Assembly (NCBI GenBank): GCA_045589295.1
Contig: JAZNOU010000005.1
Coordinates: 96,001 to 160,000, forward strand
Length of the DNA: 64,000 nt
Direction of reading: 5' to 3'
Origin: Clostridia bacterium
Lineage (GTDB): Bacteria > Bacillota > Clostridia > RGIG6154
Positions 1,128 through 47,376 of the stretch are shown here, in pieces. Numbering within the stretch: the first letter of the stretch is position 1; the number at the start of each line of letters is the position of its first letter. The notes beneath the pieces were generated by a model that worked only from the letters and a program-made list of their open reading frames with translations, searched no databases and was not told the origin of the DNA. Position numbers and translations under genes: made by a program.

Positions 1128-1742
1128 CTATTCCTCCGTTTCACAAAATGCTTTTAAAATCTTAAGTCCCACTTCACCGCTTTTTTCGGGGTGAAACTGA
1201 CAGCCGTACACATTGTCCTTTCCCACTGCTGCAACCAAATCACTTCCGTACTCTGAAACCGCAATAACATCGTTGCAGTTTTCGGCATGGTAGGAATGTA
1301 CAAAATACACGTGATCTCCCTCATTTAAATATTTGAAAATTTTACTTTTACTGCCTTTGAATTTTAAAGCATTCCAGCCTATATGAGGGATTTTTAAATC
1401 TTTCGGAATCACATCTCCTATATACTTTATTTCGCCTTTTATAAGTCCTAAACCCTCATGCTCACCATACTCGTAGCTTTTTTCGAGTAAAAGTTGCATA
1501 CCAAGGCAAATACCTAAAACAGGCTTTCCTTTTTTAGCCTCTGAAACTATCAAGTCGCCAAGACCTGATTCTTTAAGCTTTTTTGCGGCGTCGGAAAATG
1601 CACCGACACCAGGAAGAATTATTTTGTCTGCATTTATTATGTCCTCGGCATTACCTGTAATTTTAACATCCACACCAATTGCCTCAAAAGAGCTTTTGAG
1701 TGAAAAAAGGTTTCCTACTCCATAATCAACTATTGCTATCAT
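1128..1742 (-). CDS. hisH: Imidazole glycerol phosphate synthase glutaminase subunit
   Basis: IVDYGVGNL, GICLGMQ (catalytic Cys), QFHPEKS. Confidence 0.97.
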   Translation of the reverse strand: MIAIVDYGVGNLFSLKSSFEAIGVDVKITGNAEDIINADKIILPGVGAFSDAAKKLKESGLGDLIVSEAKKGKPVLGICLGMQLLLEKSYEYGEHEGLGLIKGEIKYIGDVIPKDLKIPHIGWNALKFKGSKSKIFKYLNEGDHVYFVHSYHAENCNDVIAVSEYGSDLVAAVGKDNVYGCQFHPEKSGEVGLKILKAFCETEE

Positions 1743-3391: not shown

Positions 3392-3396
3392 TGTTT

Positions 3397-31182: not shown

Positions 31183-31211
31183 TTTACTTAACAACAAATT
31201 TATGGTATTAT
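31183..31211 (+). promoter_or_regulatory. Host tRNA-Pro promoter upstream of attL
   Basis: TTTACT-17-TATTAT with TGn extension, 25 bp upstream of the tRNA 5' fragment. Confidence 0.6.
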
Positions 31212-31236
31212 ATTACTTGTTTGATAAATCATATTT

Positions 31237-31284
31237 CGAGGTGTGGCTCAGTTTGGTAGTACACCTTGGACACAGAGTATACTC
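31237..31284 (+). other. attL: 5' 23 nt of tRNA-Pro(CGG) joined to the element P' arm
   Basis: CGAGGTGTGGCTCAGTTTGGTAG identical to the tRNA at 31515, then TACACCTTGGACACAGAGTATACTC. Confidence 0.85.
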
Positions 31285-31333
31285 AATAAAATTTAATAAT
31301 TATCCATTCATTAACCAAAATGAATGGTATTAT

Positions 31334-31382
31334 CGGGAATTAGCGCAGTTTGGTAGTACACCTTGGACACAGAGTATACTCA
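31334..31382 (+). repeat. Second attL-like unit: 5' end of a different tRNA-Pro plus the same P' arm
   Basis: CGGGAATTAGCGCAGTTTGGTAG then identical arm; 37-bp exact repeat at 31249-31285 and 31346-31382. Confidence 0.8.
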
Positions 31383-31514
31383 TTATATTTTTGTCACTAC
31401 AAAAAAATTCGCCGTTTTTTGACCTTTCGTTCAAAATCGGAGTAGTCATTAAAATGCCTTGCCGTATTTGGCCGACTACAATTTATATTTTGAAAATTGA
31501 ATAAATAATAATAT

Positions 31515-31591
31515 CGAGGTGTGGCTCAGTTTGGTAGAGTACTTCGTTCGGGACGAAGGGGCCGCAGGTTCAAATCCTGTCACCTCGACCA
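31515..31591 (+). tRNA. tRNA-Pro (anticodon CGG), intact with encoded CCA
   Basis: Acceptor CGAGGTG/CACCTCG, anticodon arm CTTCG-TTCGGGA-CGAAG, T-loop GTTCAAATC, ACCA end. Confidence 0.97.
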
Positions 31592-31592
31592 T

Positions 31593-31634
31593 AAAAAGGG
31601 ATTGCTATTCAAAAGACGAATAGTAATCCTTTTT
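31593..31634. terminator. Bidirectional terminator between tRNA and recombinase
   Basis: AAAAAGGGATTGCTATTC...GAATAGTAATCCTTTTT. Confidence 0.8.
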
Positions 31635-31663
31635 TATTATATCAACCACTAATATTGATTTAT

Positions 31664-33316
31664 TTAAGAAGATAATGCTTGAAACCCTAATCCGTTTTCA
31701 AACTGTTCTAAGTTAATTTTGAAATTAACTGTTAATTCATACCCTTTCTTTACTGATATACTATCTATAAGATGTGCAACAATAATTTGTTTTGTTTGTA
31801 AATCAGCATTTTCATAAACATCAGCCCATTTGATAATGTTGTTATATTCTTGTTCTATTTCATAACAGTTTTTCTGTAGCTCCTCAAAGTCTGTTTCACA
31901 TCTTTGTACTTGTTCTAATAAAGGCTGTACTTCATTTTTCAATCTCTTTAGAATTTGAAGTAATTCTTTGACAACTTCATCAAATTGAGATGCACTTACA
32001 ATCTTACTTTCTATTGAACGAATTTCATCTTGCTTTTTTCTATACAAATTCTTTGCTTGATTAAGACTACCTTGTATCCGTTTCCATTCTGTTTGATATT
32101 TGTAATTGATAAACTCACCGCTTTGCAAGGCTTTTGTACGTCTTAAAAGTTGTTTTATCATATCATCAATTACATCATCAATTTTATATGCTCTATATTG
32201 TGTTTGAGCTTCATCACTTACACAGATTTTTTCTTTCTTTCCTTCATACAAGCGATTTTCACAAACATATGTCGGTATACGTGGATTATCTTCGCTGATT
32301 GGTTTATGACCATTTAACCTTGTTGATTTTGTTCGCAATTTAGCTCCGCAACAATCACAATGTATAATTCCTGACACAAGACCTTTTCCAAAAGTGGGAA
32401 CATCTGATACATCATTACAAGACATAGATATTTTTTCCTTTATCTCGGTATCTTTTGAACGTCGTTCGCATCTCAATTTTTGCACAAATTCAAAAACAGA
32501 TGGTTTAATTATTTGCAAGTGTGGATGAATTTTAGATACTGTTTCACCACTTTTCAGTACACCTGTATATGAAATATTATCAAGAATACTGTTAATTGTA
32601 GATTGCCCGAATAGTTTTCCTTTTTTATTTTTTATACATCTTCTTGCTAATTCATTGGAAATCTTTCTTGCTCCCCAAAAATTCTCATATGCTAATTGAA
32701 ATATCAGTTTGACAACTTCTGCTTCATATGAGTCAATTTCCAAATCGTAGACCTCTCTGTTTTTATGATTAATAGTTCCTTTCTTAACAATCTTATAACC
32801 ATAAGGAATATACCCACCTGCATATAATCCATCTTCAACCATTTGTCCTCGTTTCTTGCGTACTCTTGTACTTGTCTTAGCTGATTCACCAGAGCTTTGC
32901 CAGAAACGGATATAATTTATTAGGTTATCAACATGATTTTCAAACTTTTGTTGTCCTTCGACTACACTCCAAACCTCAACCCCTTGTTCAACAAACCATT
33001 TTAAGACAAAAGGAGTTTCACTTTCTATACGTCCCAACCTGTCAAACATAAAGACAAGGAGGATATCAAATTCTTTGCGTAGAGCCTCATCTTTTAATTC
33101 TGTGATTTTATCTCTGTCTTTAGCCGACACCTTGTATCCTGATATGCCTGTCTCAACCTTTTCATCAATTAAAATCCAATCGGGGTGCAATGAAATAAAT
33201 TTACGACATTCTCGGCTCTGTAAAGGTATGTCATATTTATTATTTTCTTCATCAACTAATGTTGCACATTGTTTTAATGTACTGTTACGATACAAAGTCT
33301 TTACTCGTTTTTTCAT
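31664..33316 (-). CDS. Large serine recombinase (integrase)
   Basis: LYRNST catalytic Ser motif, DRLGR, GGYIPYGY, zinc ribbon CDCCG..YVC, coiled coil; ATG 33316 after GGAGGGG. Confidence 0.93.
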   Translation of the reverse strand: MKKRVKTLYRNSTLKQCATLVDEENNKYDIPLQSRECRKFISLHPDWILIDEKVETGISGYKVSAKDRDKITELKDEALRKEFDILLVFMFDRLGRIESETPFVLKWFVEQGVEVWSVVEGQQKFENHVDNLINYIRFWQSSGESAKTSTRVRKKRGQMVEDGLYAGGYIPYGYKIVKKGTINHKNREVYDLEIDSYEAEVVKLIFQLAYENFWGARKISNELARRCIKNKKGKLFGQSTINSILDNISYTGVLKSGETVSKIHPHLQIIKPSVFEFVQKLRCERRSKDTEIKEKISMSCNDVSDVPTFGKGLVSGIIHCDCCGAKLRTKSTRLNGHKPISEDNPRIPTYVCENRLYEGKKEKICVSDEAQTQYRAYKIDDVIDDMIKQLLRRTKALQSGEFINYKYQTEWKRIQGSLNQAKNLYRKKQDEIRSIESKIVSASQFDEVVKELLQILKRLKNEVQPLLEQVQRCETDFEELQKNCYEIEQEYNNIIKWADVYENADLQTKQIIVAHLIDSISVKKGYELTVNFKINLEQFENGLGFQALSS

Positions 33317-33464
33317 TGCTCCCCTCCATGAACATTTTTTCCAATAGTAGTTTTCCAACAGAGTTTTCTGCACTAATATTTCTATCTTCTGAAAAATTTA
33401 CTGTGATTGTTAATCCGTTGATAGTCATTTTTGTAGTGTTATCTGATTGAACATTCTTAATCAT
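33285..33464 (-). CDS. 59-aa TnpW-like small protein (candidate recombination directionality factor)
   Basis: Manually translated MIKNVQSDNTTKMTINGLTITVNFSEDRNISAENSVGKLLLEKMFMEGSNEKTSKDFVS; GAGGTG RBS; overlaps recombinase start. Confidence 0.6.
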   Translation of the reverse strand: MIKNVQSDNTTKMTINGLTITVNFSEDRNISAENSVGKLLLEKMFMEGSNEKTSKDFVS

Positions 33465-33762
33465 CTAACACCTCACCCCCTACACTATCAGACAGAGGGA
33501 GTGAAACTTTTTTATTATATACTGAATCATAAAGAAAGTACACCGTTTTTTTATGATTTATAAACTTTATATTTTGTTTCATAACAAACGCTCCTTATCC
33601 GTTATAAAGCGTTTGGAATGTATTTTGTATGATTATTTATTATTGTTGAGTAAATACATACCTCAACGTGCTTTAATGTGTATTTAAACATTCAAATTTA
33701 TATTGTTAATAGTTGATTTAGGTTATATGGGCGGTTTTTATACCGCCCATATTTTCAGAATT

Positions 33763-34203
33763 CTAAATCAACAATCCGTTCTCATCAAAAAGTTTCCATG
33801 CATTTTCCGAATTTTCTGCTTCGTAATACTCAACAATCGCAGTAATCGGAAAAATGGTTTTTCCATCCTGATATATTTGCACAACTCTTTGTGTCTCAAT
33901 TTCAGAGGTAGTCATATAATCAATATCAGAAAAAAACTTCTTACATTTGGCATGTGAACTTACAAACCCAACACCGCTTGGAATATCAAGAGAAAAAGAA
34001 TCTACTTCTTGCTCTTTGACATCTCCAACATATGTGATTAGACACGCTCCACCATTGAAAATACATATTTCTGATATGTTTGTATCTTTAATATCGGAGT
34101 TTGTGTCACTTGTTACAACGACATATTCTTTTAAAATTTCGTTATTTAGTTTGTTTTCTTTATCATCAATCAAACTAATTCTTTTTACTTTACTTATATC
34201 CAT
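33763..34203 (-). CDS. Hypothetical protein
   Basis: 146-aa ORF, AAGGAG RBS, third gene of rep operon. Confidence 0.7.
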   Translation of the reverse strand: MDISKVKRISLIDDKENKLNNEILKEYVVVTSDTNSDIKDTNISEICIFNGGACLITYVGDVKEQEVDSFSLDIPSGVGFVSSHAKCKKFFSDIDYMTTSEIETQRVVQIYQDGKTIFPITAIVEYYEAENSENAWKLFDENGLLI

Positions 34204-34205
34204 AC

Positions 34206-34565
34206 TTATTTATCTCCTTTATTACTTTTTGTTTTAAATATATTTTGATTTTCCCATTCCTCTTTGTGAACATATTCATTTTCAAATCCGATACAATTTG
34301 ATAGAATATGTTCTTCGTCAATGACAGGTTCATAACCAATCATCATTAAGAATTGTTTAATGAACCAATACGGAGCTTTTATTTCAAATCCTTGTATCAT
34401 TCCGTTTTTAACATTCGGTTTGACTTTATATTTCTTCCTCGATTTTGGAACAAATAAATTTTTCTTTACCATTATTCCAGCATAAAAATCATCAATATTG
34501 GCGGTTGCCATATCATCATAATTTAATCTGAAAAAATTGCAAAAATTATAATTGAAATTTTTCAT
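34206..34565 (-). CDS. Hypothetical protein
   Basis: 119-aa ORF overlapping the rep stop. Confidence 0.65.
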   Translation of the reverse strand: MKNFNYNFCNFFRLNYDDMATANIDDFYAGIMVKKNLFVPKSRKKYKVKPNVKNGMIQGFEIKAPYWFIKQFLMMIGYEPVIDEEHILSNCIGFENEYVHKEEWENQNIFKTKSNKGDK

Positions 34566-35406
34566 AATCTCTATAACCTTTCTTATTATTAAAATATTTT
34601 TTTGTAATGATATTTACAATGTTATCATCTCTTGAAACCTCATAAGAATCATTTTTGTATTCTATAAGGTTATTTGATTCAGCTAATTTCAAAGCTGAAT
34701 CATAAGACATTTGGGACTTTTGAGGGCGGTTTATTTTCCCTCTGCACCTAAACACTTTTTCATATTGCTTATAACAACTTAATCTCATCATTTTTTTATT
34801 GTTGTGAAATGGATTTAGGTAGTCTATTAATCCGTCAATATCATAAATTGGTCGAAAATCGACTTGTCCATTTTTCCACAATGATTTAATTTCAAGTTCA
34901 GACAAGGTCATTTTTTGGTTGTCACATCTTTTCAATAGCAGATGGATGTGAGGATTATAATTTGTTTTAAATCCTTGATATTCAACGACAAACATAGCTT
35001 TGTATAATTTGTGATTATCAACAAACCGACAAAACCTCCCCCAAAAGTTTTTTATGTCTTTTGTAACAGAATTATCTTCTGCTACTTTTCTGTTGTAAGT
35101 CAGAGTGATAAGCCCCTCTGAACTATCACCATTGAAATTAAGTGATATTAACAATGACAAGTCAAGAAAAGTATTTCGTAATGAATTAATATTCCGCTTA
35201 TCATTTAATGATTTGTCAATGGTTTTTATCTCTCCTGTGGTAGTGTTTAAATACTGATTATTAGATATTTTTCTATATCCCACATCCTCACCACTTCGTT
35301 TATGAGATATTAACATATATTTCTCAGAAAAATATACTGTTACAATATCATCTTTATCCAATGGTTTATCCGTTGTTCTTACAACTGAAATTTGATTATG
35401 GTTCAT
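34546..35406 (-). CDS. HUH-family rolling-circle replication initiator-like protein
   Basis: Motif I LITLTY, motif II HIHLLL preceded by VVEYQ, LW..GQVD then candidate catalytic Tyr in LIDYL. Confidence 0.7.
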   Translation of the reverse strand: MNHNQISVVRTTDKPLDKDDIVTVYFSEKYMLISHKRSGEDVGYRKISNNQYLNTTTGEIKTIDKSLNDKRNINSLRNTFLDLSLLISLNFNGDSSEGLITLTYNRKVAEDNSVTKDIKNFWGRFCRFVDNHKLYKAMFVVEYQGFKTNYNPHIHLLLKRCDNQKMTLSELEIKSLWKNGQVDFRPIYDIDGLIDYLNPFHNNKKMMRLSCYKQYEKVFRCRGKINRPQKSQMSYDSALKLAESNNLIEYKNDSYEVSRDDNIVNIITKKYFNNKKGYRDYEKFQL

Positions 35407-35577
35407 ATCAATACAATCACCCTCTAAATTTATTTTCTGTCAGTTTAACGCGTCCGTTAAATTGTTCAGAATGTTATGTGGTAATTACCCTGTCTTTATA
35501 ATAGCATAGAATGAAAAATAATAATATTGACAAATTTTCCTTTAAATTATATAATGTAAATGCAGGAAAAATAAGAG

Positions 35578-36564
35578 GTGAAATATATGAATGAAACAGA
35601 GTTTAAAGGACTATATTATGTTTTTGAATATGATATTGATGCGGGATATATGATTGAATATGTTTCCCCTTGTAATTTGGTTGAATCAAATGGAAACTAT
35701 ATTTATGAAGATACTTGTATTGCAGCTAATTTTACAACTTTATTTTTATGTAGCTATGGTTATTTATCGAAAAAATTCAACAATATAGACACCAAAATCT
35801 TTGACAAGAACTTAAAACAATCACCTCAATTATTAATTATGTTAAAAGACTCTTGTAAAGAAAGTAATATTAAAAGAACAAAAATTGATTTTGAGAACAT
35901 AGAAAAATTTTTAAAAAATACAGATTGTCATAACTTATCAGCTCTAAATTATTTTTGTAGGTTTGCAAACAAAAAAATACCTTCAGCCATTGAAGATGTT
36001 TATAGAGATATACCTTTATTAAAATCTGACAATAAAGCATTCAACTATTTGAAAGACAATATCAAATATCAAAAGAGTAACGATTTAATAGTTGAAGCTG
36101 AAAACAGATTGGGAACCCAATCCTTTCAAAGAATTTACAAAATACTAGATCCAATGGATTTATTTTTAGTAACTTTAGATATTCTATATCAATTAAACTG
36201 GACTATAAAGTTTTGTAAAAATTGTGGACTTCCATTTCTAGTTACCAAAAGGAAGAAAACATTATATTGTTCATATAACAACAACTCTTGTAAAATAGAG
36301 GGCAGAAAAGAAAAAGAAAGAAATCGTTATATAAATAATGAGAGAAACAGACTTTACAGAAATATTAATGGAAAATTTAGTTATAGAGCAATACATTGTA
36401 GAGGACATGAAGATGAATGGGAATCTCTTCATTCTATTTTTCTTAATACAATTTATGATAACAAGAAAAACAAAAATATTATTATATGGTTGAGAAATAT
36501 CGATTCACTATTTAATCTTCATAAAACCGAACTTTTTGAATTACCTGACATCAACTCAATATGA
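35578..36564 (+). CDS. Hypothetical protein with C-terminal zinc-finger (DUF6076-like)
   Basis: CKNCGLPF...YC...SC motif; TTGACA/TATAAT promoter upstream, divergent from rep. Confidence 0.65.
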   Translation: MKYMNETEFKGLYYVFEYDIDAGYMIEYVSPCNLVESNGNYIYEDTCIAANFTTLFLCSYGYLSKKFNNIDTKIFDKNLKQSPQLLIMLKDSCKESNIKRTKIDFENIEKFLKNTDCHNLSALNYFCRFANKKIPSAIEDVYRDIPLLKSDNKAFNYLKDNIKYQKSNDLIVEAENRLGTQSFQRIYKILDPMDLFLVTLDILYQLNWTIKFCKNCGLPFLVTKRKKTLYCSYNNNSCKIEGRKEKERNRYINNERNRLYRNINGKFSYRAIHCRGHEDEWESLHSIFLNTIYDNKKNKNIIIWLRNIDSLFNLHKTELFELPDINSI

Positions 36565-36852
36565 GTTTATGGTTGTGTATTAATAAAACATTGTGAATTT
36601 TTATGAAATTAAAGAAATATATATATTTCTTACTATCAGTCTGTGATGTTTTGATGATGAATTTATGTGTTATATACATGGTATATAACATTCATTTTGT
36701 TATACATATTTATATATTTTTAATATAACAATGAGTCACTTGTATCCATATAATAATTAAAGAGATTTTTTAAAGGGTTGCAGTATTTCTGTAATCCTTT
36801 ATTATTTTTCATTAAAATAAAATTATAAAATTTATATTTTGGAGATGATATT

Positions 36853-37065
36853 ATGATAAAAGTTATTGAAGATTTACAGAATGACAAAATGAAAAACATT
36901 AACAAGAATATTAACACAGTTATTTGCAGATTAAAAACAATACAAGAGAACTTACAATTCACCGCTAAGAAATATGATTTGGAAACATTGTATGACATTT
37001 TATCCCAGATATACGATGACCTTGGTGATTTTAACATTTCAGTATATGATGAAGACAACGTGTAA
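36853..37065 (+). CDS. Small hypothetical protein
   Basis: 70-aa ORF, GGAG RBS. Confidence 0.5.
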   Translation: MIKVIEDLQNDKMKNINKNINTVICRLKTIQENLQFTAKKYDLETLYDILSQIYDDLGDFNISVYDEDNV

Positions 37066-37081
37066 ATTGGAGGTGGTAGTT

Positions 37082-37264
37082 ATGAATAATGAAAAAAGAA
37101 TAAACAATTCATTTATAAATGATATAATGTTCGCAAAAGAAGCAATAAAGACTCTACAAGACTCAATATATCGATATTACCCTGAAAACTGTTTTGAAGT
37201 CCTCCCATTACTTCACAAATCTTATGATAATCTTGCATTAACAATTTATCGTTTAACAAAATAA
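37082..37264 (+). CDS. Small hypothetical protein
   Basis: ATG 37082 after GGAGGTG; in frame with track ORF 36974-37264. Confidence 0.5.
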   Translation: MNNEKRINNSFINDIMFAKEAIKTLQDSIYRYYPENCFEVLPLLHKSYDNLALTIYRLTK

Positions 37265-37400
37265 ATTAATATGTTCAAAGTGCATAAACTCACCTTACAA
37301 ACGACTTTATTAACCTTTTTATATAAACCTTATTATTAAAATATTAAGTTTGTTTTAAATGGGTTTGAGTGATTAAAGCATAATTTAAGTATAACCACAA

Positions 37401-37438
37401 AAAAGACAGGTTGCCTATCATTGACAACCTGTCTTTTT
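37401..37438. terminator. Bidirectional terminator
   Basis: AAAAGACAGGTTG...CAACCTGTCTTTTT. Confidence 0.75.
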
Positions 37439-37556
37439 CCTATTTCGATTATGCCAAATTATTCTTCTTTATTATTCCCCACTTTTATTAAAAAGGTTTC
37501 TATTCCCATAATAGTCAGCCCCAACCAGCAAAAGCTCTAATATCCCTGTATAAACA

Positions 37557-38108
37557 TCATCTGTACATTTGAGTTGCAATATCTGTAATCAAAACACAAG
37601 CAGTCATACTATCCTGAATACTTACAGAATCTGTGCAAATCTCTTGATAATCAAATGTGCTACCATAATACTTTGCAGAAGCCTCAGGGACAATTGTTTT
37701 ATCAGCATTTATTGAAAACAGATATACATATGTAAAATCTTCTTTTGTGGAATAATCCTTTGCTGAAGCGATACATACATTAACACTTAATTCTCCATAA
37801 TATTTATCATTATCATAAACGAACTCACTATCTTGAATTATTTTTTCTATAAAACTACTATCTTCTTTTATTTTCTCTTCACTCCATGATGTTGAAACCA
37901 TCGTCATTATTTTGTCATTTTCGTCATTATAAGAGTCCATTTTCTTTACAAAATCAGATACCGTTTTCATTTCATATGAATTATCTTCAGCAAAAATTTG
38001 ATAATCTTCGACCGATGTTATAAATTCTTCATTTGTTACCCCACATCCAGTTACATTAATCAACACCAGCAAACATAGTAACAAAATGCTTATTTTTTTT
38101 GAATACAT
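37557..38108 (-). CDS. Putative lipoprotein
   Basis: MYSKKISILLLCLLVLINVTGC lipobox; GGAGGG RBS before ATG 38108. Confidence 0.7.
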   Translation of the reverse strand: MYSKKISILLLCLLVLINVTGCGVTNEEFITSVEDYQIFAEDNSYEMKTVSDFVKKMDSYNDENDKIMTMVSTSWSEEKIKEDSSFIEKIIQDSEFVYDNDKYYGELSVNVCIASAKDYSTKEDFTYVYLFSINADKTIVPEASAKYYGSTFDYQEICTDSVSIQDSMTACVLITDIATQMYR

Positions 38109-38124
38109 CCGTAATCCCTCCCTA

Positions 38125-38355
38125 TTATTGTGCACGTCTAACACACTCTTCACAATATGATAAGGTGTTTATTAATGAGCCTCTATTTTTACAACTATTA
38201 TTTGCACACTTATGCAAAGTACAGTAATTAGACCCCAATGGACTTCTTTCAGATGGGCATCCCGAGACGGAACAATATTTTACTCCGCAGCCTGAAAGCA
38301 AAATCAACAGTATTGATAATAATACCATAGTTAAAATAAACGATGTTTTTTTCAT
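38125..38355 (-). CDS. Small cysteine-rich lipoprotein
   Basis: LLSGC lipobox then CxxxxC/YCxxHxC/YCxxC repeats; AAGGAGG RBS. Confidence 0.7.
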   Translation of the reverse strand: MKKTSFILTMVLLSILLILLSGCGVKYCSVSGCPSERSPLGSNYCTLHKCANNSCKNRGSLINTLSYCEECVRRAQ

Positions 38356-38396
38356 ATGTAGTTCCTCCTTAGCTAATAAAATAATTTTATTAAAAA

Positions 38397-39596
38397 TTAT
38401 TCGACTTTCTTCATAGTTGCTTGTGTTTTCCCTACAGATTCTATTTCATACTTAAACCCATTTTCTATTCTTACATGATTATCGTATTGAACATTCCCCA
38501 TTTTGAATATAATCTTGTCTCCATTCACTCTGTATGGAATTACTATTATATCCTGTCCACGTAGAATATCTGCCTCTTTCGATGTGTCTTCGGGTCTATA
38601 TGTAGAAAAGTCAATAGTAAATGTTCCGTTGGTTTTATATTCCCATATTGAGCCGTCAGGATTTTGCCATTTACCTATAATAGCTTTTTCTAAAGGCAAT
38701 TTCGTTTCAGTAGGTTGATATGTTAAATCTTTTTTAGGATATATATAGATGTATCGTTTATTATCATCAGAACTATATGTATAGAAACAAACATTTCCTA
38801 CAACAGCAATAGCTTTTTCTTCATTATCAATTATGGATTCTTTTAATACAGACCAAATCTTGTTTTCATAAAGACTTTCATCCAATTCAGGAAGCAAAGC
38901 CATAGAGATAAACTTGGTTTGTTCTCTTATGACATCTTTTTCGCTTGTCGACATATTATTGTATACATCATTATCAATTTTCCAAATTACACTGCTAATA
39001 TGATTTGAAAACTCATCTACGTAAACTCGTTGTTCGCTTATTACTGACGGAAAAAAGTTACGTGTTATCTTTGTACCATTATCATTTGTATAAAATCCTT
39101 CTATAGTTGAACTATAAAACGATGGAATAGTATATTTTGAGCTATTTGTATAATGTTCAGCTTCGACATAATAATTGTAATTGTCAATAAAATCCTCATA
39201 ATCAATATCAAAATACCTTTCACCATTTTCATCAACATTTATGTTAGCAAATCTATCAATACTTTTTGAGGCAGTTTCCAACTTATTGTTTTGTTGCGAC
39301 ATAGTTGCACCATTGTTATAATTATTCTGACCCACTTCTTTATTAGATTTGTTATTCAATGGTGTATTTAACCTCCACGCAACCAAAGCACATATTATCA
39401 AAATGCATGTAGTTATTATAGTGTTTATAATCACTCTTTCTTTCTTTTTCCTCAATGCTGACTGCTTATCCTCATTTTTTTCGAGGGTGTTTGTGTAAGC
39501 ATACACTTTGCCACATTCCGAACAGATATATCGTCCGTTGTAATTTACTATTTTCCCTTCACACTTAGTACAGATTAAAGATTTAATTTCTTGCAT
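38397..39596 (-). CDS. Zinc-ribbon, single-TM membrane-anchored protein
   Basis: CTKC..CSEC, one TM helix, C-terminal IIGKW lipocalin-like motif. Confidence 0.7.
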   Translation of the reverse strand: MQEIKSLICTKCEGKIVNYNGRYICSECGKVYAYTNTLEKNEDKQSALRKKKERVIINTIITTCILIICALVAWRLNTPLNNKSNKEVGQNNYNNGATMSQQNNKLETASKSIDRFANINVDENGERYFDIDYEDFIDNYNYYVEAEHYTNSSKYTIPSFYSSTIEGFYTNDNGTKITRNFFPSVISEQRVYVDEFSNHISSVIWKIDNDVYNNMSTSEKDVIREQTKFISMALLPELDESLYENKIWSVLKESIIDNEEKAIAVVGNVCFYTYSSDDNKRYIYIYPKKDLTYQPTETKLPLEKAIIGKWQNPDGSIWEYKTNGTFTIDFSTYRPEDTSKEADILRGQDIIVIPYRVNGDKIIFKMGNVQYDNHVRIENGFKYEIESVGKTQATMKKVE

Positions 39597-39744
39597 TACT
39601 TCTCCTCCTTAAACTTTATTCTTAAAAACCTTTCTCATATTATATCACACACTTTTTCGACATGCAACTATTTTTTAGTTCATATTTTGACTATATCGTT
39701 AAATAATAATATCAGTTAAAATTATATTATATGGAGGTGTTAGT

Positions 39745-39918
39745 ATGGATTTTATAATAAAAAAACCTACAAGTTCAAACCGAACAGTCAGAATGCCTGA
39801 TGAGTTGATTGACAAAATTGGCAAACTCGCAAATGACAAGGGTATTTCCTTTAATCAGTTAGTTATTCAATGTTGCGAATTTGCATTGGAACACTTAAAC
39901 GATAAGGAAAGCAAGTAA
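39745..39918 (+). CDS. 57-aa ribbon-helix-helix DNA-binding protein
   Basis: Manually translated MDFIIKKPTSSNRTVRMPDELIDKIGKLANDKGISFNQLVIQCCEFALEHLNDKESK; GGAGGTG RBS; below track cut-off. Confidence 0.75.
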   Translation: MDFIIKKPTSSNRTVRMPDELIDKIGKLANDKGISFNQLVIQCCEFALEHLNDKESK

Positions 39919-39943
39919 TATAACCAGCTCCTTCTATGTGTGG

Positions 39944-40738
39944 TTATATCCAATCTTCAAGTTCAGATACCATCCCTTTTTCAAAGGATTCCTTTTGAAA
40001 AGGGATGGTTTTTTGTTCTGTCTCATTTTCTTTGATTGCTGTAACCTTTAACTCTACTTTTACAGAATCATATTTATTTTCCATAATGACATTTCCATAG
40101 GAGTCAATTATACCAATCCCATTTTCCCCCTCTGTGATATTGCAAACATTTTGACGGTTAATAACAATCGGATGGTTAAATATTTCCTTATACACCTTAT
40201 ATTCACCCTCTTGTGGATACAGATATGTACTATATCTTGCATCATAAAATACAGGTCCTTTTTCCGTATTTCCACAAAAGCAAAAACAAGACTCACTATA
40301 TGAGGTATATTCCTTTTTATAAATCTCTTTGCCCAATTCTCCGTATAAGATATACTGATACTTTTCATCTTTGCAATATAAAAACGGAGTTTCAACAACA
40401 ATGTCAACAAAATCCCGTGCTGTGTTTGTTGCTGAATTATAGTATCTTACTTTTTGGTCGTTACTGAAAATCAAATCATGACCGAATGTATCCAGCGTGT
40501 CATACTCACTTTCAGCAATAAAACATACTTTGTCTGTTTCTATTCTGACCGCTCCGATTTTACCTTTTTTATGTATAACAAATACGTTCTTTCCATACAT
40601 AAAAATATTATCATACTCAATTGGTAAAATACATAAGTTGTCAGTAAGGTTTTTAATTCCCATCATCCCGTTATCAGATATAACTTTAATACTGTTTAAA
40701 ACTGATTTTTCAAACACATTCCTTCTGCTAAATAACAT
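39944..40738 (-). CDS. WG-repeat-like protein
   Basis: Repeats such as MMGIKN..ILPIEYD, KIGAV..SEYD, GIGIIDSYGNVIMENKYD. Confidence 0.6.
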   Translation of the reverse strand: MLFSRRNVFEKSVLNSIKVISDNGMMGIKNLTDNLCILPIEYDNIFMYGKNVFVIHKKGKIGAVRIETDKVCFIAESEYDTLDTFGHDLIFSNDQKVRYYNSATNTARDFVDIVVETPFLYCKDEKYQYILYGELGKEIYKKEYTSYSESCFCFCGNTEKGPVFYDARYSTYLYPQEGEYKVYKEIFNHPIVINRQNVCNITEGENGIGIIDSYGNVIMENKYDSVKVELKVTAIKENETEQKTIPFQKESFEKGMVSELEDWI

Positions 40739-40889
40739 AATATCCTCCCATTTTTATAATTGTAACTGCCATTTTTATAAATATAAACCAAGAGCACATA
40801 AATGTACATAGCCAAGTTACAAAAAAGACCGCCTATGTAATTATACTTTTAACTACATAGAAAGTCTTGGACATTTTGTCCACTTTTGT

Positions 40890-42434
40890 TTAATTAGGAA
40901 TTATTCTGTTATCTTTTAATAAATACCCTGTGATATCACCTACATCTTCCCAAGTCACGTTTAGTTTTCTTATATTATTATTTATCCAAAATGCATACCC
41001 TTTAGAGAACATCTCTCCTTCGCATAAGACAAATCCTGTTTTTTCATCATAGCTGATACACCAGGCTATACAATAATTAAAATTATTATAAATCTGTTCT
41101 CCTGCTACACCGATTACACCTTCATTAAGTCCTATTAAAAGTTCTGTTCCACCATCACCATCAAAGTCATAACAGATTATGTCAGCATTTTTTCTTAAAT
41201 CATCCGAATAATCCTTAGAATATTCGTATTGGTTGTTAAAACTAAATTTATTACTGTATTTATGACCTTTGCTGTCATCTAACGATACAGATAAAATCCC
41301 ACCATTCAAAGTTATATCTGCATCTACAATAGTATTATTCTTTCCTATTTTTATTTTTCCGTTTTTATTTATATCTTCTAAAAGCAAAATATGTTCCCAA
41401 GGTTGTTGCATTGAGAAAACACAAACATTGGACAACAAGTTGTATTTTTTATACTCAGACTCTTTCTGTCCTTCTAAAAATCCGTAAAATGTTCCTTCGA
41501 AATCCAACTCCTTGTTTTCCTGATTCGTTACCTCTTTTTCCTCAGTTTTTTCAATAACTATATTATTTTTCTCAACCTCTGTTTCAGGCTCGTTTGTAAC
41601 CTCAGATTCAGGCACATCTGTTTTAGTTTTCTGTTCTGTCTTTTTATCGTTGCCCTGTTGTGTTTTAACTTCTATTCCATTTTCATAATTCAAAAGGTTA
41701 ATTATAATCAATGCTAATACAATTACTGAGAGTGCAAAAATGAAGAGATATTTTAACGAGTTAAGTGTTATCGCTCTTTTTACCGCTTTCACACTTTGAT
41801 ATCTTTCAGACGGGTCAAGCCTTTTACACTTTTCTGCTACCTTATATAAAAAGCCTTTTATATTTATGTAATCAAGAAGTGTTTTTAAAGTTACACCAAA
41901 CGCATATATATCTGTTTTAAAATCAGTAGGAAGCATACCATATTGTTCAATAGGTGCATATCCAAATGTACCTATTGTTTCGGTATCACGTCGTACTTCT
42001 TTTCGGTAAATTCGTGCAATATCATAATCTGTCAACCATATGTGGTCTGATTCATCAATCAGAATATTGTCAGGTTTAATATCTCTATGTATTATGTCGT
42101 ATTCGTGGAGTTTATCAAGAGCTGATAAAAGTTGATTAGATATAGAATATATCTGCTTTTTACTTAACTTTTTGCCCTGTGCCATATAATCACTTAAAGA
42201 CATACCTTTAACATATTCTTCAATAACTATAGTGTCTGTATCAAATCCGACATAATAAATCTTTGGAATACTTTCGTGATTTATCTTTTTAAGTAATTTA
42301 TATATTTCTCTTTTGTCACCGCTTATTACTCGTTTTAAATATCTCTTTTTGTCAGAGCCTTCCATCAATAAAATTTTTTGACGTTCACTCTGCCTTATTA
42401 TTTCTATTTCCCTTATGGAGTCTATATCGAACAT
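40890..42434 (-). CDS. Membrane-anchored Hanks-type Ser/Thr protein kinase
   Basis: IEEYV, HRDIKPDN, DYD, GTFGYAPIE, DIYAFG, TM helix, extracellular domain; ATG 42434 after AAGGAG. Confidence 0.88.
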   Translation of the reverse strand: MFDIDSIREIEIIRQSERQKILLMEGSDKKRYLKRVISGDKREIYKLLKKINHESIPKIYYVGFDTDTIVIEEYVKGMSLSDYMAQGKKLSKKQIYSISNQLLSALDKLHEYDIIHRDIKPDNILIDESDHIWLTDYDIARIYRKEVRRDTETIGTFGYAPIEQYGMLPTDFKTDIYAFGVTLKTLLDYINIKGFLYKVAEKCKRLDPSERYQSVKAVKRAITLNSLKYLFIFALSVIVLALIIINLLNYENGIEVKTQQGNDKKTEQKTKTDVPESEVTNEPETEVEKNNIVIEKTEEKEVTNQENKELDFEGTFYGFLEGQKESEYKKYNLLSNVCVFSMQQPWEHILLLEDINKNGKIKIGKNNTIVDADITLNGGILSVSLDDSKGHKYSNKFSFNNQYEYSKDYSDDLRKNADIICYDFDGDGGTELLIGLNEGVIGVAGEQIYNNFNYCIAWCISYDEKTGFVLCEGEMFSKGYAFWINNNIRKLNVTWEDVGDITGYLLKDNRIIPN

Positions 42435-42505
42435 TTTAGACAACTCCTTGCATATTTCGACAATGTATACTATAATAATTATAGTAAATTCAGGGAGGAT
42501 TGTCA

Positions 42506-42925
42506 ATGTATACAATAACAGATGAATTACTAAAAGAACTCAAAAACGCATCAGATATAGAATCGTTTTTCAAATCTCATGAGAATCAGTTTATAAACGA
42601 AACAACATCAAGTTATCTAAATAAAATGCTCGAATTAAGAAATATAAATATTTCTGCTATTGCAAAAAATTCAGGTACAGGTGAGTATGTATATAAGATA
42701 TTCAGAGGTGACAGAACCGCTTCCCGTGATATTTTAATTTCTATCGCTTTTAGTATGAAATTATCTTTAGAAGAAACTCAGTTGCTACTTCGAATTTCTA
42801 AATTCGCCATACTTGATTCACGTAACAAAAGAGATAGTATTATAATATATGGTCTAACTCACAATTTAACTGTTTTTCAAGCAGATGATTTGTTAGAAGA
42901 ACAAAATATGACAACATTAAATTGA
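42506..42925 (+). CDS. Putative XRE-like helix-turn-helix regulator
   Basis: ISAIAKNSGT..YVYKIFRG, RDILISIAF..LSLEETQLLL; divergent from kinase. Confidence 0.6.
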   Translation: MYTITDELLKELKNASDIESFFKSHENQFINETTSSYLNKMLELRNINISAIAKNSGTGEYVYKIFRGDRTASRDILISIAFSMKLSLEETQLLLRISKFAILDSRNKRDSIIIYGLTHNLTVFQADDLLEEQNMTTLN

Positions 42926-42938
42926 TTTATACAAATGC

Positions 42939-43514
42939 TCATAAATTTACCGCATTGTAACAATCTATAATCACTTTTTGAGTAATACCTATATATCTTA
43001 ATGTAATTGCACTCGATGAATGATTTAGGAGTTTTTGAAGTGTTTCTAATGGTACATTATTAATGTATCTGTGATATGCCATAGTCTTTCTTAATGTATG
43101 TGTACCGAAATTACCTTTAATCCCTAAATCCTTTGTAAGTGTTTTAATGATATGATGCAGAGGTCTTACTCCTAAATGACTACCCTTTCGACTTTTAAAT
43201 AAAAAATCCTCCATATCATAGTTTGCTAAAGAGTTAAGATATACCTGTATCGCACCTTTAGCATTTTTATTTAATGCGAAATTCCTTGTTTTTCCTGTTT
43301 TCTGTTCTTTAATAGTTACTGTATCAAATATTATATTTCCATCTGTAACATCATTAATTTTTAATGATAATAAATCTCCTGCTCTTAATCCAACATTGAT
43401 TCCAACAACAAATATACAGTAATCTCTCTTATTTTCTTTTCCGTATAAATATTGCTTGATTTTGTTAATATCTCTTGTGTTTTTAATTGGTTCAACCTCT
43501 TTTGGTAATGTCAT
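42939..43514 (-). CDS. Small tyrosine recombinase (catalytic domain only)
   Basis: GLRAGDLL, EQKT, HTLRKT, LNHSS, LRYIG (R-K-H-R-H-Y); 191 aa. Confidence 0.9.
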   Translation of the reverse strand: MTLPKEVEPIKNTRDINKIKQYLYGKENKRDYCIFVVGINVGLRAGDLLSLKINDVTDGNIIFDTVTIKEQKTGKTRNFALNKNAKGAIQVYLNSLANYDMEDFLFKSRKGSHLGVRPLHHIIKTLTKDLGIKGNFGTHTLRKTMAYHRYINNVPLETLQKLLNHSSSAITLRYIGITQKVIIDCYNAVNL

Positions 43515-43826
43515 ATGTTTAATCTCCTTTTTCAGTTGTAACTTAATTTTTTACAATTATATATCGCGTGTGTGAAAAAGTACACCGTTTTTCACATAAA
43601 GAAAAATATTACCTTTTGCCCATTTAATGAACATAAGGTAATATTCAAAACTTGTTTTTATTAAATTTTAAACCTCACATTTCCCGAAACCATTACAAGA
43701 GTTAAGTTTGAGATGTTTGTGTGAATGATACCTTTTGTTAAAAGGTATTATTCGTTGACAATTAAACATTGAAAGAATCTAAAATTTTTGATATACTTTA
43801 TACATAAATGTATAGGAGGAATTTGC

Positions 43827-44744
43827 TTGAATCTTTTCATAATTGGAAACGGATTTGATTTGGCTCACAACTTGCCAACACAATATATGAACTTTAGAGA
43901 ATATTTAGAGGAAAGAGATTGGAACTTTCTTATGATGTTAGAAGAAACATATGGATTTTGTTCAGATAGCAACATAGAATATCTAAAAGAATATTTATGG
44001 CAGAATTTTGAAACCAATTTGTCCTACATCAATGAAACAGAAATAATAGAACTCGGCTCACATATTGACTTAGGATTAGAAGGTGGTGATTTTGGAGTAG
44101 AAGAAACGTTAGATTATTATTGGGAAAACCAATATGGCTACATAAAAAAATTAAATGAATATTTATATTCTTGGATAAATCAAATTGATATTAATGTTGA
44201 TAGAAAGACAAATTTTATTAACGAAGAAAACTATGATTTATTCATAAATTTTAATTATACACTATTGTTAGAAGAACTATATAATATAGATTCATATGAT
44301 ATTCTCCATATTCACGGCTCCGTATATCCTCACGACACACCGCCGATTATAGGACACGGAGATTATAAGAAAATAGAAGAAATGTCATCAAAAGTTTCTG
44401 AATATTCAAATGTAAATATGGAAAAGGAAACGAGCATATATAATGCTGTTCGTAATTTTTATGAAAGAACTTTTAAGGATGTAAAACACTACATACGGTG
44501 GAACGAGAATTTTTTTGTTAGATTAAAGGAAATTGAACAAGTGTTTATTGTAGGTCATTCCTTTGGTGATGTGGATTTACCCTACTTTAAAGAGATATTG
44601 TCTTATGTTCCTAAAAACGCACAATGGAATGTATATTATTATAAACCTGAAGAAGAATTATTTTTTAAAGATAAACTGATTGAAATTGGAATTAATGAAG
44701 AGAATATAAAGATGTATCATACATCAACATTTTTTAATATGTAA
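43827..44744 (+). CDS. AbiH-family abortive infection protein (SIR2-like fold)
   Basis: LFIIGNGFDLAHNLPTQY, NFNYT, HIHG, GHSFGDVDLPYF; TTG 43827 after GGAGGA. Confidence 0.85.
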   Translation: MNLFIIGNGFDLAHNLPTQYMNFREYLEERDWNFLMMLEETYGFCSDSNIEYLKEYLWQNFETNLSYINETEIIELGSHIDLGLEGGDFGVEETLDYYWENQYGYIKKLNEYLYSWINQIDINVDRKTNFINEENYDLFINFNYTLLLEELYNIDSYDILHIHGSVYPHDTPPIIGHGDYKKIEEMSSKVSEYSNVNMEKETSIYNAVRNFYERTFKDVKHYIRWNENFFVRLKEIEQVFIVGHSFGDVDLPYFKEILSYVPKNAQWNVYYYKPEEELFFKDKLIEIGINEENIKMYHTSTFFNM

Positions 44745-44833
44745 ACTATTATTATATGCAGCTAACGGATTATTACATTTGGAATTATATAACTAAAGAT
44801 ATGAATAAAAACTCTATCAAGGAGGGAGTACAT

Positions 44834-46462
44834 ATGAATAAAATTGAAAACACATATTATCAAAAATCTAATATCGAATATCTTAAAAATATATACGGAA
44901 AAGAACTTTGGGTTCAAGTCTCTGGACGCAGAGATTTAAATGGAGCCGTTGCAAGCTTTTGGACAGGATTAGTTTATTTGGATGATTTAGATAAAATTAC
45001 TCAAAAATCAGATTGGGAGGCTCATATTGGAACACAGGCTCCTGGTTTTGTCGAATATGGTAATGGTGATATAGAGTATGAGAAAATCTCAGCTTCGAAT
45101 ATTTATTGTGAACACATTGTAAACTATAGAGATTTTTATGGCATAAAGCCTGAATATGTTGAAGTTGTCGATGAATTTAGACTCCTTAACAATTTATATC
45201 ATGATTTCCAATCTAACACACTTTACGCAATTAAGGATAATGGAATTTGTGATGAAGTAGTTAAAATTGAAAATAATACGAATGTTTTTATAAAGCTAAA
45301 GTATTTAATCAATTATGCAACGGCTAAACAAATGGCTTTACTACTGTTTTTTGATATTGACCAGCAAATTTCTGGAACATTGGAAAAAAATCAATTAAAA
45401 AAATTTTCTGATAGTCATATTGGTAAAGATATTGTATACAGCATTTGGGGAGATGAAATGGGAGGGAGTAATTATGTATATAGTATCTTAATGGGTAAAA
45501 AGATAATTATGCCTAAACCAATTAATGAATGTGGTTATTGGCCATATGAGAAAGAATATGAATATTTAGACTTTATTATTGGAAATGATGAATACGGTGA
45601 AAACAAAACATTTACATCTAATCCTAACAAATTAGCCAACTACTTCGGTGCAAATCCAGATGCCCCTCACTATTTAACACCTGTTTTCTTTAATAAAGAA
45701 GTATTGCAAAAATACTTATCTTCTGATATTTATAGCATAGAAGATGGTTACTTAAGATGTCGCGGACTTTGGGGCTTAAGAATGGATAACCATCATAAAG
45801 ACTATGTAGTTGTTTACTTGGGAGATTTAGGCAAAGAATTACCTTATGAAGAACAACACCATTGGAAAAATTATAATATTGTTTCTGACGATACGATTAG
45901 TAATGCAAAATTCAAAAGAGATTTCTTAGGAATTCCAAGCAACGCTGAAATTTCTGATTTAAAATTCAAAGCAGATTTTTCATGTTTTCAAAAACAATGG
46001 TACAATAAATTTGGATGGTATTTATTTTTACCGCTTACCTCTGATGATGAATATAATTTTAGTAAAATACATATTCCAATCGTGAATACACAAGATGAAT
46101 TTGACCATTTAGTATTGTCATTAGTAAAAACAATTATTGATTCACTTAACGAAAAAGAAATAAAAAAATTAGTGAAAGACACATTGGATAAAAAGAGTGG
46201 TCAAGAATTAAAAGGAAGTATATCTAAACTTGAAAGATGGTTTGAAGAAAGTAATCTTACAGACTATATTGAACACATAGAATTTTTAAGGAATTTGCAA
46301 AATCTACGTTCTGCCGGAACAGGACATCGAAAAGGAAGCAACTATGATAAAATTTCAAAAGAGTTTGATTTAGATACTGAAAGTTACACAAATGTATTTG
46401 ATTCGATATTAGAAAAGACAAATATGTTTTTAAGTTACTTAACCAATACCTTTTTAGCATAA
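44834..46462 (+). CDS. Hypothetical protein with C-terminal helical region carrying an R-x5-H (HEPN-like) motif
   Basis: LQNLRSAGTGHRKG near C-terminus; ATG 44834 after GGAGGGAG; follows the AbiH gene. Confidence 0.6.
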   Translation: MNKIENTYYQKSNIEYLKNIYGKELWVQVSGRRDLNGAVASFWTGLVYLDDLDKITQKSDWEAHIGTQAPGFVEYGNGDIEYEKISASNIYCEHIVNYRDFYGIKPEYVEVVDEFRLLNNLYHDFQSNTLYAIKDNGICDEVVKIENNTNVFIKLKYLINYATAKQMALLLFFDIDQQISGTLEKNQLKKFSDSHIGKDIVYSIWGDEMGGSNYVYSILMGKKIIMPKPINECGYWPYEKEYEYLDFIIGNDEYGENKTFTSNPNKLANYFGANPDAPHYLTPVFFNKEVLQKYLSSDIYSIEDGYLRCRGLWGLRMDNHHKDYVVVYLGDLGKELPYEEQHHWKNYNIVSDDTISNAKFKRDFLGIPSNAEISDLKFKADFSCFQKQWYNKFGWYLFLPLTSDDEYNFSKIHIPIVNTQDEFDHLVLSLVKTIIDSLNEKEIKKLVKDTLDKKSGQELKGSISKLERWFEESNLTDYIEHIEFLRNLQNLRSAGTGHRKGSNYDKISKEFDLDTESYTNVFDSILEKTNMFLSYLTNTFLA

Positions 46463-46480
46463 ATTTTAAAGGAGATACAA

Positions 46481-47053
46481 ATGGAATTTTATGAAATTAT
46501 GATTAACCTATCTATAGGAATAACGGGCGGTATATTTTCTAGTATTATTGTTTCACGTATCTTTTTAATACATTCTTCGCATTCAGAACAATTAGCAAGA
46601 GTGCAAGAGCATTTTGAAAATACTTACAGATTGAGTGGAACATTACTTTTTTATATGTATGCATTTCAAAAAGATGAGAATAATTTTGACGATGATACTA
46701 TTAATCGCTTTAACGACGCATTGCTAAAAGATATACACGAAGTATCAAAACAAGAATGCGAAAAATTTCGGTATATGATTTTCGATGACTTAGAAATAGA
46801 ATTATATAAAATCGCTGTTAATTTAAACGATTTAATGGAAGGAACACTATCATTAAATAAAGTCGATATATCTATAGTAAGAAAACTTCATAAAGACTTA
46901 TTTGATATACAAGATAGATTTAAAAAGTATAAGATAACTAACAACAAGCATTTTGTGACAAAAATAAAAAAGGACAAAATATTACGAATACTCATTCTTG
47001 CTTTGGTTATAATACTCATTTCAACAATAATATCTTGTATATGTGCTAAATAG
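46481..47053 (+). CDS. Hypothetical membrane protein (N- and C-terminal TM helices)
   Basis: Hydrophobic LSIGITGGIFSSIIV and ILILALVIILISTIISCI; AAGGAG RBS. Confidence 0.7.
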   Translation: MEFYEIMINLSIGITGGIFSSIIVSRIFLIHSSHSEQLARVQEHFENTYRLSGTLLFYMYAFQKDENNFDDDTINRFNDALLKDIHEVSKQECEKFRYMIFDDLEIELYKIAVNLNDLMEGTLSLNKVDISIVRKLHKDLFDIQDRFKKYKITNNKHFVTKIKKDKILRILILALVIILISTIISCICAK

Positions 47054-47134
47054 AAGTTTATCAATGCAATCAAATATTACAGCTGTATTTTGCTATTAAA
47101 ACGCAAAATTATTCATAATAAGAATAATTTACAA

Positions 47135-47215
47135 GAGTTTACTCTATATCCAACGTGGTAGAGTACTTCGTTCGGGACGAAGGGGCCGCAGGTTCAAATC
47201 CTGTCACCTCGACCA
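47135..47215 (+). pseudogene. attR: element P arm joined to the 3' 60 nt of tRNA-Pro(CGG)
   Basis: 47156-47215 identical to 31532-31591; preceded by GAGTTTACTCTATATCCAACG, the inverted partner of the attL arm. Confidence 0.9.
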
Positions 47216-47376
47216 GTCGAGAGCCTCGACACGCATTATCGCGTACCGAGGTTCTTTTTAATTTTATATTTTCGTTCACGCGTTCAAGCTTGACACGTTA
47301 TGAACACTCGCACCACGTCGGAACAAGTTTTGCTTGTTCCAATTTTTTTATGCGTATTATGTATAAACTGTTTTTC

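Follow-up and report, generated by a model that had tools for sequence, protein, structure and literature searches.

In this study, a stretch of 64,000 nucleotides from a Clostridia bacterium (contig JAZNOU010000005.1, positions 96,001 to 160,000), hereafter called the window, was analyzed, and a 15.9-kb element of low guanine-plus-cytosine (GC) content was delimited at 31260–47161. The tRNA-Pro(CGG) gene of the chromosome is split by this element at the border of the D-loop and the D-stem. The element very probably entered the gene through a 2-bp AG exchange by its own large serine recombinase (LSR), and carries a complete tRNA-Pro(CGG) as a replacement and as a landing site. In the proposed mechanism, the LSR would insert the element into the chromosomal gene by AG exchange, and the complete tRNA, which lies just inside the left attachment site (attL), would replace the gene that was lost.

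The window belongs to genome G000, whose assembly is 97% complete and contains 42 tRNAs. The GC content was 0.24–0.33 inside the 31–47 kb region and 0.36–0.38 in the flanks. ARAGORN found a single tRNA in the window, the intact tRNA-Pro(CGG) borne by the element at 31515–31591 (plus strand), with an Rfam tRNA score of 64.1 bits. The first 23 nt of this gene are repeated at 31237–31259, directly 3' of a promoter-like site at 31183–31211 (plus strand; TTTACT-17 nt-TATTAT, with TG before the -10 element). Its last 60 nt (31532–31591) are repeated at 47156–47215 with 100% identity. The two repeats are the fragments of the host gene, and they overlap in TGGTAG only. The 5' fragment ends in the crossover AG (31258–31259) and forms the B side of the outer attL, while the 54 nt at 47162–47215 form the B' side of the right attachment site (attR). 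Rejoining 31259 to 47162 in silico gave a valid tRNA-Pro(CGG), and the element tRNA was identical to the rejoined host halves at 77 of 77 positions, with the same anticodon. ARAGORN made no call at attL or attR. The 3' fragment at attR scored 27.5 bits against the Rfam gathering score of 29, so it is no gene by itself. An earlier reading made from the letters of this DNA alone (the sequence-only reading) had reported tRNA-Pro halves sharing only TGGTAG, and an intact identical tRNA about 255 bp inside that adjoins the recombinase gene; all of these were found in place.

The inner flanks of the element carry the symmetry of an attachment site. The P half-site at 47135–47159, followed by the crossover AG at 47160–47161, and the P' half-site at 31260–31284 are 25-nt inverted repeats around AG with 19 of 25 matches. 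This number was reached by 3 of 500,000 random 25-mer pairs drawn from the island, which bears out the 52-bp imperfect palindrome centred on AG that the sequence-only reading had described. Half-sites of the same pair matched at 19/25 positions in G000, 20/25 in G043, and 18/25 in G042, whose arms were taken from different contigs. In G042, both arms had changed at two mirrored positions, from T to C at -17 and from T to A at -4. The P arm occurs once in the genome and the exact P' arm twice; the P' arm also follows tRNA 5' fragments in the related loci L020 and L022 and in variants. The element's own site (attP) is thus about 50 bp long, with imperfect inverted half-sites, a non-palindromic 2-bp centre, and TGGTAG alone in common with the tRNA, as expected of a serine integrase. 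Because attP and the target site (attB) have only TGGTAG in common, neither junction rebuilds the tRNA. A search of viral contigs with the P' arm gave no matches. A 5-bp shift of the zinc-ribbon motif between attB and attP half-sites, looked for by eye, was hinted at on the left side and not on the right, and was not used.

The LSR gene (31664–33316, minus strand) is convergent with the element tRNA. Its open reading frame (ORF) is open to 33373, and the likely start is MKKRVK at 33316, since L022 has a stop upstream of it. A hairpin with a T-run at 31594–31636, seen by eye between the two convergent genes, is kept by all close relatives; it was not listed by the terminator scan. The protein matched the Pfam families Resolvase (PF00239, 42.9 bits, cut-off 23.3) and Recombinase (PF07508, 46.3 bits). 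The catalytic motif LYRNSTLKQ aligns with LYRVST..Q of the relatives, and S12 is invariant in the alignment, as are C320, C323, C352, and C365. A profile of the window LSR and eight relatives was searched against solved structures. It matched the SPbeta integrase (8.4e-19, positions 135–517), the catalytic domain of TP901-1 (1.2e-12), the C-terminal domains of the A118 integrase (1.2e-9), and the PhiC31 integrase (3.8e-7); the single sequence gave no match to solved structures. Judged by these domains and residues, the recombinase beside the attachment site belongs to the large serine recombinases. The LSR, rather than the short tyrosine recombinase encoded further inside the element, probably does the cutting. 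Among plasmids and phages, the best matches were 34–37% identical; records L070–L072 contained no tRNA, with the LSR C-terminus lying at the record end in two of them. A search of viral contigs found no relatives of the LSR.

Other genomes indicated which sites recombine. G043 contains a second complete element of about 12 kb, whose LSR is 89% identical in amino acid sequence to that of the window. The host tRNA and the element tRNA of G043 differ at 6 of 77 positions. The host 5' and host 3' fragments together form an acceptor stem with 7/7 pairs, as does the element tRNA alone, whereas host/element chimeras reach 5/7. In-silico excision at AG gave a valid tRNA-Pro(CGG). A crossover between the 60-bp direct repeats is ruled out in G043, because it would yield a chimera and none was seen. 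Since the host halves belong together and differ from the element tRNA, recombination took place at the hexamer. A functional host/element hybrid tRNA, the hallmark of a classical tRNA-restoring island, was not found in G043. G001 represents another species within the genus. There, the promoter seen in the window stands immediately before a tRNA that is identical to the window's and not interrupted, with a different terminator behind it; the contig stops 48 nt past the tRNA, so this comparison covers the left side of the site. G001 has nothing equivalent to 31260–31514, and no LSR homologue was found there at E<=1e-20. In G002, of the same genus, the left-flank homology ends exactly at 31259. 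The claim of the sequence-only reading that a serine-integrase element splits a tRNA near the D-loop and brings a complete replacement was upheld by G001 and G043. That reading had named an empty site retaining 31260–31514 and excision between the 60-bp repeats as results that would speak against it; the first is absent from G001, and the host halves of G043 pair together with the exchange at the hexamer.

The layout is conserved in relatives. The scans found 22 loci in species-representative genomes and 14 in metagenome contigs; nine of these loci code for close relatives, with 70–90% amino acid identity in the best segment. The LSR gene lies beside the attachment site in all ten family members. 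An intact tRNA-Pro(CGG) is located 59–93 nt past the LSR stop, on the opposite strand, in 8 of the 9 close relatives. In the ninth, L019, the 5' part of the tRNA is replaced by the arm of another element. A junction unit was defined as the 5' 23 nt of the tRNA, the P' arm, and a spacer. With the window included and L019 not scorable, two units were found in the window, L020, and L055; one unit in L021, L022, L036, and L056; and none in L032 and L040. The outermost 5' fragment differed from the element tRNA in 4 of the 7 members with units. The further proposal that the left end of the element is hard to lose was not supported, as two of ten family members have lost the junction unit and kept the tRNA.

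The same layout recurred with distant LSRs (about 34–38% identity), where other tRNAs are cut at an identical position (...GG-N-AG). The tRNA is Ala(CGC) in L023, with three units, and in L024, with one; Pro(TGG) in L090, with one unit; and Ala(GGC) in L093, with two. When the class was sampled evenly, 14 of 399 scored genomes, G000 included, had an LSR belonging to this clade (E<=1e-60). A tRNA gene or its 3' part lay within about 260 nt of the LSR C-terminus at 10 of 15 places outside G000; these places include L081, on the same contig as L020, and L086, which was not viewed by eye.

A second junction unit, absent from the sequence-only reading, was found in the window at 31334–31381. Its first part, 31334–31356, is the 5' 23 nt of another tRNA-Pro(CGG) allele and forms the B side of an inner attL scar; its second part is a further copy of the same 25-nt P' half-site (31357–31381). 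The outer unit has the host allele, and the inner unit has the allele carried by L022 and L036. The spacer between the units (31285–31333) is that of an earlier L022-like element: 31246–31356 is 95.5% identical to L022 over 111 nt. The spacer of the resident element (31382–31514) follows, with a weak promoter-like site and a leader that resembles native tRNA leaders by eye. The make-up of the inner scar shows that an element-borne tRNA has apparently itself been used as attB. The carried tRNA holds the whole attB sequence, and therefore also offers the family's next element a place to land.

We infer the following order of events. An L022-like element would first have entered the host tRNA. 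The present element or a forerunner would then have entered the tRNA of that L022-like element, leaving the junction at 31334–31381. The body of the first element is absent from the window; it may have been deleted, or the present element may have left the composite through the outer attL and its own attR, carrying the inner scar along, and integrated afterwards. Such mismatched excision would leave a stranded element behind a rebuilt tRNA without attL, which is the layout of L032 and L040. L032 fits a stranded remnant because its LSR gene is internally deleted: only residues 287–436 align, and the C-terminal end is recognizable. Nine inner periods gave the distance from attP to the element's own attB: seven were 93–102 nt, and the other two were 181 nt (the window) and 114 nt (L036). 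It is a tentative idea that the usual spacing of 93–102 nt might be too short for the integrase to recombine both sites within one molecule.

Several observations weigh against insertion by the LSR at the hexamer or limit the evidence for it. The LSR scored 23.4 bits for Zn_ribbon_recom (PF13408), under the cut-off of 25.3. No excised circle, attP junction, or repaired attB was seen in public read runs, but these contained relatives' contigs only and speak for neither side: at most 0.19 of sampled words matched, and the four runs compared were contigs of relatives. Among those contigs there was no back-joint from 47161 to 31260, and a joint from 31258 to 31511 was ambiguous, with 23 nt on one side and a 23-nt repeat. 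The relatives are metagenome-assembled genomes, and the assembly of the window may be one too. The short tyrosine recombinase is more conserved between elements than the LSR (94–100% against 89%), being 94% identical in G043 and 100% identical over the 66–74 aa visible in L019 and L022. In L032 and L040, the promoter directly abuts the tRNA, followed by the LSR gene, which alone fits the classical 3'-duplication model. The last two points, together with the perfect 60-bp direct repeat, agree with a classical island, in which the tyrosine recombinase would act across the repeat, the intact tRNA would be the regenerated host gene, and the 5' fragments would be unrelated relics. However, the repeat partners in G043 are different alleles, and the host halves pair only together. 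The half-site after the 5' fragments mirrors the far-end half-site and co-varies with it, the tyrosine recombinase consists of a catalytic domain alone and lies mid-element, the LSR gene adjoins the attachment site throughout the family, and the deletion in the LSR gene of L032 is consistent with a stranded element there. A classical island is accordingly a highly improbable explanation.

The role of the carried tRNA and the origin of the double units were also considered. Of the 42 tRNAs in the assembly, the element tRNA alone is a tRNA-Pro(CGG). A further point against its function as a replacement is that genes for tRNA-Pro(UGG) and tRNA-Pro(GGG) are present in the genome, so the cell may manage without tRNA-Pro(CGG), and the carried copy may not be needed. 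U34 tRNAs often read CCG. The promoter-like site before the element tRNA (31482–31509) had 9/12 matches, no better than shuffles. The tRNA might thus be a passenger or an attB decoy, gained by imprecise or mismatched excision and not needed for replacement. This is unlikely, as the gene is intact in nearly all close relatives and the distant clades carry the target's own species, Ala(CGC), Ala(GGC), or Pro(TGG). The constant match between carried and targeted species across clades, with the intact state of the gene, argues that selection keeps it. The element tRNA is also placed where the host tRNA promoter would read into it, and read-through with RNase P processing could express it from this position. 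Expression of the element tRNA and compensation for the split gene are therefore plausible. As for the double units, those of L020 are near-identical and share the allele of the intact tRNA, which speaks for unequal crossing-over between the 23-nt repeats instead of successive integrations into element-borne tRNAs; the same repeats could explain the loss of units in L032 and L040. Unequal crossing-over cannot explain the window, L055, and L023, because their units differ: those of the window have different alleles and spacers, those of L055 have different P' arms, and the three of L023 differ from one another. The outer spacer of the window also matches that of another element type, L022. As a general explanation of the double units, unequal crossing-over is thus improbable, and successive integration into element-borne tRNAs is preferred.

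The system was compared with known integration systems. The element resembles the canonical LSRs (SPbeta SprA/YokA, A118, TP901-1, PhiC31, and Bxb1) in its domain set, its attP of about 50 bp, and its 2-bp non-palindromic crossover. The targets of canonical LSRs are, to our knowledge, protein-coding genes, and we know of none described as carrying a copy of its target. The tRNA target and the carried copy of the target found here are different from that pattern. The classical tRNA-targeting islands of tyrosine integrases, reportedly treated by Williams in 2002, likewise have a tRNA target, tRNA fragments at the island ends, and tandem arrays at one tRNA. In those islands a fragment in attP rebuilds the gene, whereas nothing is rebuilt here and the site is in the D-arm. 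In site-specific accretion, known from streptococcal integrative and conjugative elements (ICEs), cis-mobilizable elements (CIMEs), and phage-ICE tandems, an incoming element recombines with the attL or attR that a tyrosine system has regenerated. There, as here, a resident offers an attachment site to an incoming element and composites are built; the site used here is different, being a whole spare target gene that the resident carries.

The closest known system is tRNA-dependent lysogeny, described for the actinobacteriophages Fionnbharth, LeBron, and Gaia (Guerrero-Bustamante and Hatfull, mBio 2024, PMC10865867). According to the accessible part of that paper, experiments showed that these phages have about 10 bp in common with a tRNA attB, that the tRNA is not rebuilt, and that a phage tRNA of the same isotype is needed. 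The element studied here is similar in that attB is a tRNA gene, the common core (6 bp here) is too short to rebuild it, and an isotype-matched tRNA is carried. In the same available text (PMC10865867), tRNA-dependent lysogeny is a property of temperate phages with lambda-like tyrosine integrases that integrate in or near the anticodon loop. Here, in contrast, a serine integrase acts at the D-loop/D-stem border and the element is non-phage; the carried tRNA lies about 70–255 nt from attP and is re-used as attB. The term 'serine integrase' does not occur in the accessible text of that paper, apart from one introductory mention of Int-S (PMC10865867). In Firmicutes, the integrative mobilizable elements that have serine recombinases disrupt protein genes that can be spared, such as rumA (PMC5704250, accessible part). 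Like the present element, they are small and non-conjugative, have a single serine recombinase, lie inside a gene, and are flanked by very short repeats; the accessible part of that paper mentions neither a tRNA target nor a carried replacement. The tRNA sublocations known from Islander are the anticodon loop and the T-loop/acceptor junction (PMC4383910). The main text of the LSR catalogue preprint by Durrant et al., as far as it was accessible, does not contain the word 'tRNA'. Literature searches turned up no description of a serine integrase that acts on the D-arm of a tRNA or brings along the tRNA it targets; supplementary catalogues of LSRs and islands may list such sites.

The principle of splitting and replacing a tRNA is therefore already known. 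What is new is that the integrase is of the serine type, that the site lies in the D-arm, that the element is not a phage, and that the tRNA stands beside attP and is re-used as attB. This mode of tRNA targeting, known from phages with tyrosine integrases, now takes in serine integrases and small elements of gut Clostridia that are not phages. The D-arm is a fourth tRNA sublocation beside the catalogued anticodon-loop and T-loop/acceptor sites. The short, defined sites of this LSR clade in conserved tRNA D-arms (Pro-CGG, Pro-TGG, Ala-CGC, Ala-GGC, and Asn-GTT) are candidate attB/attP pairs, which could serve the genome engineering of anaerobes that are hard to handle. Island finders that seek a tRNA and a 3' fragment would take the 60-bp repeat and misplace the left border by about 270 bp. 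The scar arrays let the order of past integrations be read from sequence alone.

An unrelated element type was observed at the same tRNA. Its cut in tRNA-Pro(CGG) falls in the anticodon loop, and the common core is about 8–9 bp long (TTCGGGAC). It was seen in L013 at 2130–2690 (G003), in L002 at 1–250 (minus strand) with L016 at 880–1110 (both G002), in L050 at 1290–1540 (minus strand; G042), and in L019 at 7780–7960. The target gene is not rebuilt by this element, and a complete tRNA-Pro(CGG) of its own lies about 150 nt inside. Its 5'-fragment units are stacked with a period of about 190 nt, and the core is flanked on either side by a repeated motif with the look of arm-type sites. In G003, where the far end was not assembled, genes for a 475-aa tyrosine integrase and a TetR protein follow. 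The anticodon-loop element looks like a non-phage analogue of tRNA-dependent lysogeny.

The anticodon-loop element was also found at places already shaped by LSR elements. In G042, it interrupts the 3' part of the host gene that remained after the LSR element split it, and in L019 the tRNA that it has cut is the one carried by the LSR element. In G002, it occupies the locus syntenic with that of the window; the synteny is based on a copper ATPase gene on the left and on a right-flank terminator that resembles window positions 47216–47260 by eye. The promoter-proximal 5' fragment of G002 (CGGGAAT) does not pair with the far 3' half (CATCCCG), whereas that of the second unit (CGGGATG) does. This acceptor mismatch in the sequence hints at allele swapping by mismatched excision. 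It is conceivable, though held here as a tentative idea, that the carried tRNA is a portable attB which lets elements of the LSR family, and those of the unrelated tyrosine-integrase family, land in one another, with the stacked attL scars as a record. If so, an element that left by pairing an outer attL with an inner attR would take scars with it, as in the window, and elements would be stranded next to a chimeric tRNA, the layout of L032 and L040. Such excision would also swap tRNA alleles between elements and chromosomes.

The island is best explained as an integrative, non-phage element with a rolling-circle Rep and defence-like cargo. A protein similar to rolling-circle replication initiators is encoded at 34546–35406 (minus strand; Pfam REP_ORF2-G2P, 6.9e-11; PHROG 3419), with 66% identity in L055 and 27% in G043. 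A Ser/Thr protein kinase at 40890–42515 (minus strand; Pfam Pkinase, 1.8e-28; PADLOC mad6 / PD-T4-6) is defence-like cargo, as is an AbiH-like abortive-infection protein at 43788–44744 (plus strand; Pfam AbiH, 2.6e-49; PADLOC AbiH). Since kinase and AbiH cargo is present here, and different cargo lies between the same backbone genes in G043, the family looks like a small carrier of defence genes. The short tyrosine recombinase (42939–43514, minus strand; 191 aa; Pfam Phage_integrase, 4.3e-26) has the catalytic domain only; one possibility is that it resolves multimers of the rolling-circle replicon. Two conserved right-end ORFs of 568 aa and 190 aa (44756–47053, plus strand) lie beside the P arm. 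They are 80% and 93% identical to those of the G043 element, and had no match in Pfam, PADLOC, or PHROG. Ten island proteins without a clear Pfam family were compared with the PHROGs. Two matched, the rolling-circle Rep and a family of unknown function, and neither was a phage structural protein. No relaxase family was matched among the island proteins, the Rep-like protein being the only related find; the origin of transfer (oriT) was not part of the search. A 100-aa ORF at 31202–31504, which gene callers may annotate, covers the promoter, both junction units, and the spacer, and is almost certainly spurious because of these features.

Further observations were made in other genomes. The attL of the element in G045 was not found in its nested structure of LSR and tyrosine elements. 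In L093 (G098), each spacer of the two tRNA-Ala(GGC) units holds an 18-nt piece like the D-stem/anticodon-arm region of the tRNA. LSRs of about 35% identity to that of the window lie beside a junction in which a P-like arm and AG lead into the 3' portion of tRNA-Asn(GUU), with the same D-arm cut. These loci are L097 (about 4250–4450), L098 (about 3370–3480), L099 (about 12100–12200; G314), L066, L058, L084, L085, and L096. The inverted symmetry of the tRNA-Asn type is weak (9/25 without a shift), and several of these junctions were miscalled as tRNA-Asn by ARAGORN. In L097, the same arm and AG are followed by non-tRNA sequence, with a complete tRNA-Asn 82 nt further on, which may represent an unintegrated arrangement of attP and tRNA.

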